Assembly: GCA_951406725.2 (NCBI GenBank) | Contig: OX597827.1 | Span: forward strand, 17,546,001 to 17,610,000 | Direction: 5' to 3' | DNA length: 64,000 bases | Source: Octopus vulgaris | Taxonomy: Eukaryota | In this document: positions 8,265 to 59,563 of the stretch, one piece after another | Numbering within the stretch: position 1 is the first letter of the stretch | Layout: every line of letters begins with the position of its first letter | Notes under the pieces: model-generated | Database searches by the model: none | Told to the model about the DNA's origin: nothing | What the model saw: only the letters and a program-made list of their open reading frames with translations | Program-made: the position numbers and the translations under genes

Positions 8265-8448
8265 GTATAGTTCAGTTTGAAAACCGCACTAGAATGGGAG
8301 AAAGCGCTAATACATCATCTAAGTTATATGATGTATATAAACATGTAATATACAAATAAATATCTGTAAATATAAAACCATCCGAATTTCTGAGTACCTC
8401 ATTTCTTCTAATATAAAATACATGTACATCATCTCCAAACCTTCCAGT
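8265..8448 (+). mobile_element. Short dispersed repeat in TA microsatellite, pLTR-like, with a degenerate hammerhead-like 5' motif
   Basis: Homologous in reverse orientation to 38670-38850; begins TTGAAAA...GAAAgcgcTA. Confidence 0.55.
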
Positions 8449-8946
8449 ATATATATATATATATATATATATATGTATGTATGTATGTATGTATGTATGT
8501 ATGTATGTATGTATGTATGTATGCATGTATATATGTATTATGTATGTATGTATGTATGTATGTATGTATGTATGTATTATGTACTGTGTGTGTGTGTATG
8601 TATGTATGTATGCATGTATGTATGTATGTATGTATGTATATATGTATGCATGTATGTATGTATGTATGTATGTATGTATTATGTACTGTGTGTGTGTGTA
8701 TGTATGTATGTATGTATGCATGTATGTATGTATGTATGTATGTATGTATGTATGTATGTATGTATGTATGTATGTATGTATGTATGTATGTATGTATGTA
8801 TGTATGTATTATGTACTGTGTGTGTGTGTATGTATGTATGTATGTATGTATGTATGTATGTATGTATGTATGTATGTATGTGTGTGTGTGTGTGTGTGTG
8901 TGTGTGTGTGTGTGTGTGTGTGTGTGTGTGTGTGTGTGTGTGTGTG
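8448..8946. repeat. Compound (TA)n/(TATG)n/(TG)n microsatellite with repeated ~110-bp higher-order blocks
   Basis: The block TATTATGTACTGTGTGTGTG recurs three times at roughly 100-130 bp spacing. Confidence 0.9.
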
Positions 8947-9175
8947 AAGATGCATGGTTCAGTGTTTAGAGCGTCGGGCTCGCGATCATGAAGTAGTGAT
9001 TTCGATTCCCGGATTGGGCTATGTGTTTTGTTCTTGAGCAAGACTCTTTATTTTCATGTTCCTGCAGCAGTCCACTCAGCTGTAAAACTGATTTTGCAAT
9101 GACACTGGCGCCAAGCTGTATCAGCCTTTCTCTGTCTCATGGGAGGCGTGGAGATGGGAATCTGGTATGCATGGG
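8947..9175 (+). mobile_element. SINE family D, partial
   Basis: Head GCATGGTTCAGTGTTTAGAGCGTCGG and body TTGAGCAAGACTCTTTATTT match 30776-31120. Confidence 0.7.
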
Positions 9176-9983
9176 CGAACGTGTTTTTGTTGTTAGTAGT
9201 GTTCTCGTTGTTGTTGTTGTTGTTCTTGTTAGTGTTGCTTTTGTTGCTGTTGTCACTTTTGCTATTGTTGTTGTTGTTGTTGGTGTCATCGCTGCTGCCG
9301 CTGCTACTGCTGTCTCTTTCGTTGTTGCTGTTGTTACCACTTCTACTACTGCTACTGCTGTTATTGTTGCTGCTGCTGTTGTTGAGCGAAGCGGTCTTCG
9401 CCCCTAAGTTGGGAGAAGTCCGAAACGTGGTCCTTTGCTATCCGTAAGACCCGCAGGAGAGAAAGCAGGTCAACCCCCCGACACAGAGAGCATCGACGGA
9501 CGGATGGATGAATGCGCATCCAGGCTGCTGTCGTTTTCACTGCTACTGTACTTGCTATTGCTGTTACCACTGCTGTTGCTACGAGGTGGGCTTTGTACTG
9601 TGCCACTCTCGATTTTCTCCTCCCCTTATCTTGCATTGTTGCCAGTAACGAAGGAAAGTGGGGAGAAATCTTCAGCACTCACCAGATTCGTGAGAAGGGC
9701 AGTTTTCTTTTTTCTCAACTCTTTCAAGGCGCGCTCCGCCATCTTGTTCAGTTGTGCTTGATTAAATTAAATTAAACACCCACCGAAATTATTTGGTGGG
9801 CAGAATACAGCCCTTCGGCGGGTGGGAGGCGAAACATAGAAGACTAGTAACAGGTTTCTAATGTTTCTATTGTCAACTTCGAATAAAATAAATAATGCAA
9901 AGAAGCACCAAATCGGTGTAAATAAGTTTTAAGCTGTACCAACCTAGTGCGTTTAAAATCACGTCCTATGTATTCTACAGTGA

Positions 9984-55685: not shown

Positions 55686-58427
55686 TCATTGGCGTATGTA
55701 TGTATATATATATATGTGTGTGTGTGTGTGTGTGTGTGTGTGTTTGTGTGTGTGTGTGTATACACATAAACACATATATATATACAATATAAATAGAGAT
55801 GTATATGCTCGTATATATATATATATATAATATATAGCAACATGCCATTTAATAATGATATGTATGTGTGTTTGTGTATATATACATTCATGATGCTATT
55901 TAATAATTCGATATATGATAGATGTAACTTGATATATTTTGTAACTGTTTATTTGATTTTGATTATCAATTGCTTAAGCGGTCGTAATGGAATAACTGGA
56001 ATACGAAATATTTGTTTTCGTTTTATACTTTCCTAATGTGTTGAATGTTAATTAGGTTGTAGAATGAGCTCTGATGTTATAAAATACTTTTATTGATGTG
56101 TTATAGCCCATAGATCCTTCATTCATATAAAACTGTGCGATCAGATGCGTCTATTTAGGTGTGTGAGCTTTCAGCGTTGGGGCTGATTTTTAAGGTTCAA
56201 AAAGAATGTAGTTAGATGAAAAGATTAGCTGGTCGGTAGATATGTAACCAAGTTTAGTTGTTGATGATGCTATTTGGACTCTAATTCGAGATTTCCTTTG
56301 TTTCTTTTGGGAATGTAAATGCTATTGCCCAGGCTTTTGTTCAGCATGCAAAGCTTTGTAATCAGATGTGTTTATTTAGATGTATCAGATTTAGGTCATG
56401 GTATTTACAGTATAAAAATTTGGTTTCATTTTGAAACCGATAGATATACACTACAATAAAAACTACGGTAAAAACAAAGTTGCCAACACTCACGTAATTT
56501 ATATATAATTACATCACTTGTACACTCGCGCACTCAAACACACACACACATAGGAATATATATATGCGTGTACGGATTGCGGATATATATTACCTATCTA
56601 TCTATCTATCTACCTCTGTGTGTGTGTTCGTCTTTCACGCGAAAACGGCTGCGCGAATTGCATGGTTGATTTGACCTCGAATATATAATAGGCTCTTCAG
56701 TTTATTATTTTATTAAAACTAAATAATATTTTTTCATGTATAAGATTAACTTCATTAAAAAGGTTTCTCAATGTTAATTTCCAGTATTGACGTAGCAACG
56801 GCGTAAATTTTCGCTTTCATTTGCGAAACCTCTCACTCTCTATTTTAATGTATTCATTTCAAGTTTTAATTCGCTATTTGCAAGCAACTAAGATAAATTA
56901 CTAAGTTCACAAATTTCGTTTGAACCCACATACTTCGTTAAGTTCAGTAAAAAAGCTTTTAGTTAATTACATTATGCGCGCCGTGTCAGCTCTATGTATT
57001 CGTAGTCAATCACCCACGCACAAGTGTGCTTTTGTATGTACGTTTGTATACATATATGTATGTGTGGGTATGTTTGTGTTTGTGTGTGAGAGAGAGAGAG
57101 AGAGAGAGAGAGAGAGTGAAGGGGTGTTTTGTCATGTATACGTTCATACATAAATATCTACGCATACGTTATTTTTGTATGCATGTGGAGAAAGAAAGGG
57201 AGCGACAGTGATGTCTAAATGGCACTCATTCTCTCTCTCTCACACGCACACATATATACAAAAAAGATGTATGCATATTTATGTACGTACAAAAAGCCGC
57301 CCGATAGGGCTCCTGTGGAAGGCTCTTCATTAGGTTTTTGGCCCAACAATGACACTTCATGCATTGAGCACATATTAAATTTTATTAAACTTGAACAATA
57401 TTTTTCAAGCAAGGGACAGTTTTCTTCATAGGAATGATATAATTTGTCGACATGGAATTTATTGCAAAGCTGCATGATAAACATTTATAAAATAATTATA
57501 TGTATTTATGTAGCAAGAGCCCTACCTGAGAGTAAATATTCACAAAACCCAAAGAGGGTGAATTGTGGTTTGTTTCTTTGGGTTGGTTTGGTCAACATAT
57601 CACCCTACATAAGTTACCCATATATAATATAATATCTATATTCCGACCTATAAGACCTATAAATCTATTTATTTGGTATTTTGTGAAATGCACAAACACA
57701 CATATCCATTCATACAGATTGTTGGAATTTGAATTCGTTCCAAAGGTTTGCATATAAATCTGTAATCATCTATTCATTTTGATACACATATGTGAATTTG
57801 TGTTTTATTTTTGGGATTACTATCCTGTTTGACTTGGCATGTTCACAATGATTTTCATCGTTCTCACGTTTGTTGGCACGGATTCGGAAGATTAATCCAA
57901 GAGCTTTCAATTTCGTTTTCCATTTCGGCTTTTACTTGCTAACACAAACATCATTAATTTCTCTAACATTTTCTCTAATTATATATATAACATTATACAC
58001 ATTCTCAACTGCGTTGCACTCAGATATTAAATTAACATTTGTTAATCCGATAAATTTCGAATTTAAAATCCTTAAATAATCACTTTGTTGTATTAATTCC
58101 CTCACATCATTATGTTATTGGGGTATGAAATTTTGATTTTATTCATTAATATCTTATAAATGCTATCAATTTTAATATAGTCAAAGTGAAATTCACTGTC
58201 CCTATTCTCAAAGCTTATACAAAATAAATAAGTCCGCGCTTGCGCAGTGATAGCTTCCTTTCATTACAATTAATCGATACCCAACACATTCATTCTTACC
58301 AAATACCAAGACCCTTTTTCACATTTTAAGTAAGAGAAGAAGCAAAATGATGGTGATCAGAAGTTACATACATGCATATATATATATATATATATATATA
58401 TATATATATATATATATATATGTTGGT

Positions 58428-58801
58428 TGGCACTGCGTCCTTTTTGACGACGAGGGTTCCAGTTGATCCGATCAACGGAACAGCCTGCTCGTGAAATTAA
58501 CGTGCAAGTGGCTGAGCACTCCACAGACACGTGTACCCTTAACGTAGTTTTCGGGAGATTCAGCGTGATACAGAGTGTGATAAGGCTGGCCCTTTGAAAT
58601 ATAGGTACAAAAGAAATAGGAAGAAAGAGTGAGAGAAAATTGCGGTAAAAGAGTACAGCAGGGTTCGCCACCTCCCCCTGCCGGATCCTCGAGGAACTTT
58701 AGGTACTTTCGCTCAATTTACACTCATAACGCCCGATCAGGGAATCGAAACCGAAACCGCGATCCTCTGACCGCGAGTCCGCTGCCCTAACCAATGGGCC
58801 A
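58428..58801 (-). mobile_element. Chimeric SINE, same type as 29985-30342
   Basis: Near-colinear with 29985-30342. Confidence 0.8.
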
Positions 58802-58988
58802 TCAACGGTCTCTTATATATATATATATATATATATATATATATATATATATATATATATATATATATATATATATATATATATATATATATATATATAT
58901 ATATATATATATATATATATATATATATATATATATATATATATATATATATATATATATATATATATATATATATATATATATATAT

Positions 58989-59563
58989 GTCTCTCTAAAA
59001 GAGAACAGCGGCAGCGTTCCCGGAAAACAATAGTTATCGCCATACTAATATGGCATTCTTACAAAAATAAGAAAAAAGCTGTCCGCTTATTAGCTCCATG
59101 AGGCCATCGCCTTAAGTTAGCTATTTGATACACAAACTGTATCCATATAACCTTCGAACAAGGGAGGTCAGTCGCTCCACACTACTTGACCGGCAGCTAC
59201 AGACGCGTTTCGGGGTATTGCCCCTTTTCAATGCAGCGTAGCCAGCCAGTAGGTGTCGCTTCCGACAATCTCTGTTCGATGGTTTTATTTACCTAGTTTC
59301 GGTGGAATACATCCACTTGTTTTCAATAATAGAAATATTAAAATAACTAAGTCTCTCTAAAAGAGAACAGCGGCAGCGTTCCCGGAAAATAATAGTTATC
59401 GCCATACTACTATGGCATTCTTATAAAAATTAGAAAAAAGCTGTCCGCTTATTAGCTCCATGAGGCCATCGCCTTAAGTTAGCTATTTGATACACAAACT
59501 GTATCCATATAACCTTCGAAAAAGGGAGGTCAGTCGCTCCACACTACTTGACCGGCAGCTACA
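58989..59563 (-). mobile_element. 1.6 tandem copies of a 362-bp hammerhead-containing unit (retrozyme-like or PLE pLTR-like)
   Basis: 58989-59201 is repeated at 59351-59563 with only a handful of substitutions; sits between TA and TACA microsatellites. Confidence 0.8.
59196..59237 (-). ncRNA. Minimal type I hammerhead ribozyme motif, U3-A8 variant
   Basis: Minus strand: gctgca-TTGAAAA-gggg caata cccc-GAAA-cgcg-TC-tgtagc; 6-bp stem I, 4-bp GC stem II, GUC triplet. Confidence 0.75.

Follow-up and report, generated by a model that had tools for sequence, protein, structure and literature searches.

Hammerhead motifs in the window belong to repeat families

The window analysed here, 64,000 nt of Octopus vulgaris contig OX597827.1, had been predicted from its letters to carry seven hammerhead folds on unrelated elements, two with the canonical CUGANGA core and five with UUGAAAA. 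At each of the seven sites the claimed core, GAAA, UH and a self-complementary helix III are in the expected positions, and both canonical sites, 28096-28168(-) and 53985-54022(+), are C3-G8. The elements are not all unrelated, however, as the seven motifs represent five repeat families: the copies at 18913 (family C) and 54768 (subfamily C2) are 74% alike, and those at 38805 and 8275 (family E) are 84% alike. The minimal type I fold (N3-UGA-N-N8-A core, GAAA, UH, helices I-III, open at helix I) is present in families A, B, C and D and weak in C2 and E, while in a further family, F, position 3 is preceded by an extra nucleotide. Helix III is palindromic in all families and mostly 6-10 nt.

A solo family E terminal-repeat (pLTR) fragment lies between TA tracts at 8269..8447(+), and its decayed motif (8275-8311, +) retains UUGAAAA and helix III AGCGCU with a broken stem II. 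Family F, which the original prediction did not list, is represented by an inverted 5' copy at 16508..16618(-) with a hammerhead-like motif (core start 16592) and by an array at 16628..17525(+) of 11 tandem 67-nt units followed by an AT-rich tail. Each unit has stem I GGGAC/GUCCC, an extra C and the core UUGAAGA (U3-G8), with GAAA plus the palindrome AGUAUACU retained in 6 of the 11. Family C follows as an inverted 5' copy at 18558..18779(-), whose overlooked hammerhead (18611-18648) is identical to that at 18913-18950, and as a direct pLTR copy at 18781..19041(+) that ends in a TA tract. The hammerhead at 18913-18950(+) is U3-A8 with helix III ACCGGU and a predicted cut after 18947.

The family A element at 27997..28484(-) consists of an inverted tail piece and a direct piece, and no ORF was found in it; its hammerhead (28095-28169, -) is C3-G8 with a long stem II, ACUAGU and a predicted cut after 28102. 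A MITE seemed possible from what look like terminal inverted repeats in family A, but these are of variable length and correspond to the inverted tail piece, so we rejected that reading. A second solo family E pLTR fragment, at 38674..38847(-), bears a U3-A8 motif (38805-38841, -) with a C.C mismatch, then a 5-bp stem II, and a stem I of only 2 bp. Inside a TA tract sits a 78-nt family B element (53978..54055, +), likewise with no ORF found, whose C3-G8 hammerhead (53985-54022, +) has a 2-bp stem II with a GCAA loop and ACUCAGAGU. Subfamily C2, an older branch of family C, occupies 54686..54876(-), with a decayed U3-A8 hammerhead (54768-54801, -) bearing A10.1-U11.1. Finally, a retrozyme-like family D insertion at 58989..59563(-) comprises one 362-nt unit and a partial unit with a long TA tract at the end. 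Its hammerhead (59196-59237, -) is U3-A8, with a 6-bp stem I, a 4-bp stem II, ACGCGU and a predicted cut after 59202; a second, imperfect UUGAAAA motif (59285..59333, -; core start 59326) was recognised by eye and fails our descriptors.

The motifs exceed shuffled expectation and escape Rfam

Our strict descriptor demanded a stem I of at least 3 bp, a stem II of at least 3 bp (or at least 2 bp after a 1x1 mismatch) and a helix III of at least 3 bp; strict and loose thresholds were chosen post hoc, with the window sites already known. The strict form was passed by four of the seven sites (28162-, 53989+, 18916+ and 59231-), both canonical ones among them, and by an additional family C copy at 18645(-) absent from the original prediction. 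Two sites (54799- and 38839-) matched the loose descriptor only, and 8277(+) matched neither. A C-core motif at 42330(+) was ruled out, as stem I is absent in register. Across the whole window there were 5 strict and 7 loose matches, against means of 0.02 and 0.07 and a maximum of 1 in 150 dinucleotide shuffles (500-nt blocks).

An independent sample of 40 position-picked 10-kb stretches gave 5 strict matches in 400 kb (three C-G, one U-A and one U-G), compared with about 0.36 per shuffle (30 shuffles, summed over all 16 N3/N8 combinations), and a looser scan gave 9 versus 2.6 shuffled (maximum 4 in 12 shuffles). Extrapolated over 2.8 Gb, the strict count corresponds very roughly to 10,000-80,000 motifs (Poisson range).

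The expectation that these ribozymes are probably unannotated was borne out in the window, where Rfam returned nothing at gathering score and, at E 10, no hammerhead model appeared among the 150 of 372 matches listed. The D site was unmatched by the hammerhead models even at E 10, as were six J, K and C2 loci by the hammerhead model. Because natural cores range over C-G, U-A, G-C, A-U and U-G, searches fixed on CUGANGA, and the Rfam models, undercount ribozymes in such genomes.

Two families are terminal repeats of Penelope-like elements

Families C and E are pLTRs: they belong to Penelope-like elements (PLEs) whose ORFs encode RT plus GIY-YIG, in agreement with the prediction that retroelements carry these minimal type I hammerheads. 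Family C occurs on both sides of an RVT_1 plus GIY-YIG ORF, in copies 4,350 nt apart (locus L091), and such an ORF lies upstream of the hammerhead repeat in C (L091), E (L079), H, I, J and M, ending 160-710 nt before the hammerhead. The structural hallmarks of PLEs are present, namely direct pLTRs, inverted 5'-truncated copies and a tail at one end only. The L091 ORF has a C-terminal GIY-YIG domain preceded by a CX4CX2C linker, and DKG and GxKF motifs, by which motifs alone we would place it in the Neptune clade of EN+ PLEs.

No linked ORF was found in the flanks of 30 A, 30 B, 30 D, 20 F and 16 K loci, selected from 329-2,437 candidates each, and the L119 ORF, considered as family A's parent, belongs to family I. 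Families A, B, D and F probably depend on the same PLE enzymes, as truncated or non-autonomous derivatives.

The predicted preference for TA microsatellites also held, with 3' ends joined to TA tracts in 26/27 copies of C, 16/18 of E, 33/38 of D and 12/25 of A, and in 31/34 of B, for which the BLAST query itself included TA. Family D copies end at two places, about unit position 177 or 240, and both these alternative 3' ends and inverted 5' pieces were observed. We infer that the GIY-YIG endonuclease would nick TA tracts and that the RT would prime at the nick, starting at either of two internal sites in RNA that is uncut or has been re-ligated; this would account for the whole ribozymes in the copies.

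The motif at 59231 belongs to a young tandem unit consistent with a non-LTR retrozyme, in which non-coding units 150-450 nt long are repeated in tandem and each contains a type I hammerhead; D has one well-formed hammerhead per unit. We recovered 37 full 362-nt D units, mostly identical, in arrays with inverted 5' pieces. As a test of rolling-circle origin, we looked in 37 units from 27 loci for private variants shared within arrays; there were none, the family being too young to inform. The D unit is covered by assembled contigs from four runs tentatively taken to be RNA, and in three of the runs they bridge the predicted cut; since ligated RNA, uncut RNA and DNA would all give this pattern, the contigs were set aside. 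The 40 best copies of D, of C and of K, a dispersed family found elsewhere in the genome, are 97-100% alike, marking all three as young.

The 3-8 core pair is swapped between families and kept within them

Core pairs differed between families. C3-G8 was found in 25/27 copies of A and 31/31 of B; U3-A8 in 39/39 of C, 15/17 of C2 and 67/67 of D; U3-A8 in 25 and U3-G8 in 7 of the 33 copies of E; and the U3-G8 wobble in 15/15 of F. Elsewhere in the genome, family K has a G3-C8 core and the PLE-linked family J an A3-U8 core. This uniformity within families is inflated, because copies were the top BLAST scorers to a query already carrying the given core. Positions 3 and 8 pair in the majority of copies in 19 of 20 multi-locus motif families, compared with 5 of 8 single-locus matches. 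That family count includes two matches that we do not rely on, one A3-U8 following a GAT repeat (3 loci) and one further G3-C8 (2 loci, one mismatched).

In family A, N7 is free to vary, whereas each of the remaining 11 columns of the core is conserved in at least 27 of 30 copies. Stem covariation was seen between subfamilies, at three positions in A and, between C and C2, as a G-C to A-U change in 21/21; independent events are few, those in A being drawn from one or two subfamilies. Young B, C, D and K copies vary too little for stem covariation to be informative.

The original prediction took the repeated U3-A8 change to imply selection. Its five sites reduce to three lineages (C/C2, D and E), and C, C2 and I have inherited the same core and palindrome. 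An endonuclease tree (8 sequences, query-anchored alignment) rejects a single U3-A8-only clade and does not discriminate between convergence and one gain plus later reversion. A tree placing H outside all non-C3-G8 families met only borderline rejection (p-AU 0.052 and 0.022), and J lies two changes from its U3-A8 neighbours.

Dimers through helix III are predicted for most families

Two copies could pair through the palindromic helix III to form an active core. A dimer hammerhead is predicted to be favoured over two monomers in A, B, C, D, F and J, and no other dimer structure has a lower predicted energy in D or J. It is not favoured in C2, E (-9.9 versus -11.2 kcal/mol) or K (-25.4 versus -27.6 kcal/mol), and its energy is positive for the window copies 54799 and 8277. 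Several observations count against predicted self-cleavage: E's 2-bp stem I, the unfavoured E and K dimers, the poor cutting of PLE minimal hammerheads (PMC4209133) and, in Xenopus, cleavage in vitro of only 1 of 9 predicted retrozyme dimers (10.64898/2026.07.22.740005).

Likely selection for the cutting conformation

From sequence and predicted structure, we are confident, if short of certain, that dispersed repeats, two of them PLE terminal repeats, carry minimal type I hammerhead folds at these sites, and that the folds would likely self-cleave weakly, as dimers or with assistance from the element's protein. Only in the active hammerhead conformation do positions 3 and 8 pair (PMC3884650), and therefore the retention of this pair through C-G, U-A, G-C and A-U, all four Watson-Crick pairs in one genome's repeat families, likely records selection on source elements to keep cutting. 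Such selection would not act on the window copies, because most are solo, inverted or decayed.

A broader reading, which we hold with equal conviction and doubt, is that PLE-type elements of one animal genome repeatedly exchanged the catalytic 3-8 pair and so passed through every Watson-Crick combination, E, F and H still showing U-G wobbles as intermediates. On this reading, no natural G3-C8 or A3-U8 hammerhead family would have been known before K and J, and the series would be natural evidence that selection on PLEs maintains the cutting conformation, even though insertion in vitro does not depend on cutting. An engineered C3G/G8C double mutant partially rescued a PLE hammerhead (PMC11167929), and no natural G3-C8 or A3-U8 family was found in the literature, of which our survey is incomplete.

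The fold could instead be real and selected as a structure bound by PLE protein, or as a regulatory or ligation element, with marginal cleavage in vivo. PLE hammerheads cut weakly, depend on protein and can be dispensed with for insertion in vitro (PMC8557442, PMC4209133, PMC11167929): in a Poseidon PLE, cleavage requires protein, hammerhead mutants still insert in vitro and zero RNA-seq reads end at the cut site (PMC11167929). Genomic copies here carry the ribozyme uncut, and E, F and M have weak stems or altered cores. Yet a pair specific to the active conformation is retained in all four Watson-Crick forms, as are G5, G12, A13, A14 and the UH site, and we consider this explanation unlikely. 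Less probable still is that the hammerheads are inherited relics, U3-A8 having arisen once in an ancestral PLE and other cores having drifted in non-autonomous or dying families. The descent shared by C, C2 and I, the borderline tree with H and several decayed window copies are as such relics would have it, but drift predicts mismatches where 3 and 8 nearly always pair in multi-locus families, J requires two changes, and K, C and D are young. Chance folding in an AT-rich, repeat-rich genome, which the loose matches in shuffled DNA and the Rfam miss at D might suggest and which may apply to 8277 alone and to single-locus matches, is scarcely credible overall given the strict excess in both window and sample and a PLE-end position as the literature predicts, and shuffle counts, PLE flanking and covariation refute it for A, B, C and D.

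A natural series of C-G, U-A, G-C, A-U and U-G cores on related elements, several of them young, offers a direct way to test for selection on the active conformation.

Comparison with known systems

Minimal type I hammerheads in PLE pLTRs were published by Cervera and De la Peña (2014, PMC4209133), including a U3-A8 variant with about 1,300 matches in S. mansoni, so the U3-A8 core, though present at five window sites, is no novelty. Shared with those elements are the pLTR position, palindromic helix III, inverted pairs, many families per genome and mostly solo truncated copies. The octopus families differ in a helix III mostly of 6-10 nt and in often having a 1x1 mismatch in place of the extra nucleotide after A9. 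The 56 representatives given there, which include no cephalopods, comprise 53 C3-G8, two U3-A8 and one U3-G8; unlike in octopus, none is G3-C8 or A3-U8, although the cores described as searched would have missed both.

The L091 element resembles the Neptune clade (PMC8557442) in its C-terminal GIY-YIG, CX4CX2C linker, DKG/GxKF motifs and microsatellite insertion bias, and family D's two 3' ends and inverted 5' pieces match the two RT start sites and 'tail' demonstrated for a Poseidon PLE (PMC11167929). Animal non-LTR retrozymes, proposed to be PLE-derived (PMC7229834; 10.64898/2026.07.22.740005), share with D a non-coding tandem unit (362 nt in D), low GC and dispersed short arrays. D differs in that its fold is minimal, its core is U3-A8 and every unit has a further, imperfect motif; in addition, its 5' inversions are clearly of PLE type and its 3' ends, at TA tracts, fall at two positions.

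Natural U3-A8 covariation, insertions next to C3, 10.1-11.1 mismatches and A6 variants, all seen in octopus, were described by Perreault et al. (2011, PMC3088659) as rare and mostly microbial; the natural variants named there do not include the G3-C8 or A3-U8 of K and J. PLE minimal hammerheads and natural U3-A8 cores were thus already known (PMC4209133, PMC3088659), and what is new here is the G3-C8 family K, the A3-U8 family J and the mix of U3-A8 and U3-G8 in E.

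Hammerhead motifs in the window exceed chance, and the seven predicted sites form five repeat families

The original prediction placed seven minimal type I hammerhead folds in the window, and all are present in its sequence as described. When both strands were scanned, the strict descriptor was passed by four of the seven (28162-, 53989+, 18916+ and 59231-, named by first core base and strand) and the loose descriptor alone by 54799- and 38839-, while 8277+ failed both. The scan added an unpredicted strict copy at 18645-, for window totals of 5 strict and 7 loose matches against means of 0.02 and 0.07, and a maximum of 1, in 150 local dinucleotide shuffles. 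Because these thresholds were picked post hoc, with the sites already seen, we reran the test on 40 position-picked 10-kb stretches with all N3/N8 combinations, and found 5 matches versus approximately 0.36 per shuffle; a looser scan gave 9 versus 2.6. At 42330(+), a CUGAAGA core is accompanied by GAAA and the palindrome ACCUAGGU, but stem I is out of register, and the motif may belong, in decayed form, to a different family. The window also holds SINE-like repeats in tandem (118-217 nt copies) at 14021-14610, 19591-19826 and 44503-44857.

Every window motif is present in many copies in the 2.80-Gb genome. First-look candidates, which are not copy numbers and from which the best 40 per family were scored, came to 2,437 for family A (28162-), 329 for B (53989+), 1,051 for C (18916+ and 18645-), 2,087 for C2 (54799-), 1,112 for D (59231-), 1,889 for E (38839- and 8277+) and 1,122 for F, a tandem array described below. 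Sequence comparison grouped the seven sites into five families, as the site at 54768 belongs to an older subfamily (C2) of that at 18913 (74% alike) and 8275 is kin to 38805 (84% alike). The five U3-A8 sites therefore represent three lineages.

Family F, missing from the prediction, was found by the scan as 11 copies of a 67-nt unit at 16628-17365 with an accompanying inverted copy, each bearing a hammerhead-like fold with core C-UUGAAGA. This fold occupies almost the whole satellite unit, an extra nucleotide precedes position 3, and unit variants alternate along the array. Among the matches listed, other F loci are single or inverted copies. Decayed pieces of E and F lie in inverted arrangement at 17560-17913, without a recognisable hammerhead. 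The 362-nt unit of family D is non-coding and occurs as short arrays dispersed through the genome. Of 37 full units from 27 loci, counted after 3 overlapping loci were dropped, most are identical, and D insertions end on the 3′ side near unit position 177 or 240. Each D unit has a second, imperfect UUGAAAA motif (59285-59333(-) in the window), and one 3′-end class stops just before it.

Stems covary and some families are predicted to favour a two-copy fold

Compensatory stem changes, as expected under selection for the fold, were found within A, between C and C2, and between F and H, a family elsewhere in the genome. Among 30 copies of A, counted after removal of one distant relative, 20 have U-A at stem I position 2, 4 have U-G and 5 have C-G, and stem II has double changes at two positions in 3 copies each; these represent few events, because they are confined to one or two subfamilies. 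In the A core, N7 varies freely and the remaining 11 columns are kept in at least 27/30. The pair 10.1-11.1 is A-U in 21/21 C2 copies and G-C in C, and two double changes in stem I separate F from H, whose kinship was judged by eye from their tails.

Folding calculations gave the two-copy hammerhead as the lowest-energy dimer for D (-31.9 kcal/mol, against -25.8 for two monomers) and for family J (-14.9 against -6.8 kcal/mol). For A, B, C and F this fold came close to the minimum; neither E nor K nor the window copies at 54799 and 8277 favoured it.

The 3-8 core pair varies between families

We scanned about 1 Mb with N3 and N8 free, taking a family as a motif at two or more loci. Of 20 such families, two of them weak and not relied on, 11 were C-G, 5 U-A, 2 G-C, 1 U-G and 1 A-U; positions 3 and 8 paired in the majority of matches in 19 and tied in one, and were mismatched in three of eight single-locus matches. 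Within-family uniformity in K, J and E, described next, is inflated, since the copies are top scorers to a query with the same core.

Family K (core GUGAACA, 7-bp stem I, 5-bp stem II, helix III AAUAUU) is G3-C8 in 17/17 matches at 16 loci, and the 40 best of its 692 candidates are 97-100% alike. It is a young, dispersed unit of approximately 215 nt (L024:99-156(-), L252-L267) with a fixed 5′ end about 20 nt before the fold. Family J (core AUGAUUA; L056:1173-1208(+), L177, L232-L251; 1,024 candidates) is A3-U8 in 16/19 matches at 20 loci; its 2-bp stem II, which a GAAA loop closes, put its score below the multi-locus census. Family E is U3-A8 in 25/33 matches and U3-G8 in 7/33, with G8 in 8/33 (P = 4e-5 at an assumed 4% per-site change). 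In family M, a very abundant minimal hammerhead with helix III ACGU (L210:7860(+), L211:2974(-) and 21 other matches) that is linked to a GC-rich PLE ORF, position 6 is U, not A, in most copies.

Several hammerhead families are linked to Penelope-like elements

The RT/GIY-YIG ORF at L091, which family C flanks on both sides, carries DKG and GxKF motifs together with a CX4CX2C linker. These features match the description of Neptune PLEs (PMC8557442), and by its motifs the ORF is a putative member of that clade. A second PLE ORF, in L079, has family E 458 nt downstream, and further PLE ORFs are linked to H, I, J and M, families drawn from flanks and the position-picked sample; for J, an endonuclease remnant in L177 has the motif approximately 310 nt behind. 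No ORF was found in the examined flanks of A, B, D, F or K (30 loci each for A, B and D, 20 for F and 16 for K). All five resemble PLEs in carrying inverted 5′ pieces, and A, B and D also in bearing a tail at one end only.

The predicted preference for TA microsatellites was supported, with 3′ ends joining TA tracts in C (26/27), E (16/18), D (33/38), B (31/34, from a query itself biased towards TA) and A (12/25). For families B, F and K, and for part of E, 5′ ends concentrate 8-27 nt before the core, with possible query bias for B, and perhaps mark transcription start or RT stop. The interpretation of the window motifs as predicted hammerheads borne by PLEs and retrozymes is well supported.

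Core switches and a proposed model for spread

We built a tree from 8 endonuclease or thumb-plus-endonuclease sequences, with M as the root, and a clade made up of U3-A8 families alone was rejected (p-AU 0.0006 and 0.00003). E groups with H, which is C3-G8 (support 96 and 99), and J falls inside the C/I group (74 and 94); placing H outside all others was borderline (p-AU 0.052 and 0.022). The tree requires at least three core switches, and it fits either two origins of U3-A8 or a single origin followed by reversion.

Hammerheads pair positions 3 and 8 when in the active conformation (PMC3884650), and the minimal hammerheads of PLEs show weak cutting as dimers (PMC4209133). In a Poseidon PLE, protein assists the hammerhead, C3G/G8C gives partial rescue, insertion in vitro needs no cutting, and two RT start sites produce the tail (PMC11167929). 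In the octopus, two copies in source elements or arrays may pair via helix III and cut after H17. The endonuclease would nick TA tracts and RT would copy RNA that is either uncut or re-ligated; most of the resulting pLTRs (PLE terminal repeats) would be solo, truncated or inverted and would keep the ribozyme intact. For D, spread as a retrozyme in trans is likely, perhaps by way of a circle. The window C and D copies are probably inactive in cis, because the two C copies lie on opposite strands and the D insertion carries one good ribozyme fold.

Comparison with known hammerheads

A 2014 study described the minimal hammerheads of PLEs, including the diversity of their families, the inverted pairs and the U3-A8 variant (PMC4209133). 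Natural U3-A8 had been described in 2011 (PMC3088659), and reports from 2020 and 2026 describe retrozymes as derived from PLEs (PMC7229834; 10.64898/2026.07.22.740005). Taken as written, the prediction thus extends a class already known. An annotation of octopus repeats from 2026 includes 31 Penelope-like families with recent activity, and its accessible text uses neither "ribozyme" nor "hammerhead" (PMC13282606). For natural G3-C8 or A3-U8 hammerheads, notation-dependent searches of accessible literature returned engineered examples alone, and both pairs are absent among the 56 representatives in the 2014 supplement (PMC4209133). What the present analysis adds to these systems is multi-copy G3-C8 and A3-U8 families, together with U-G intermediates, in the same genome and outside the predicted sites.
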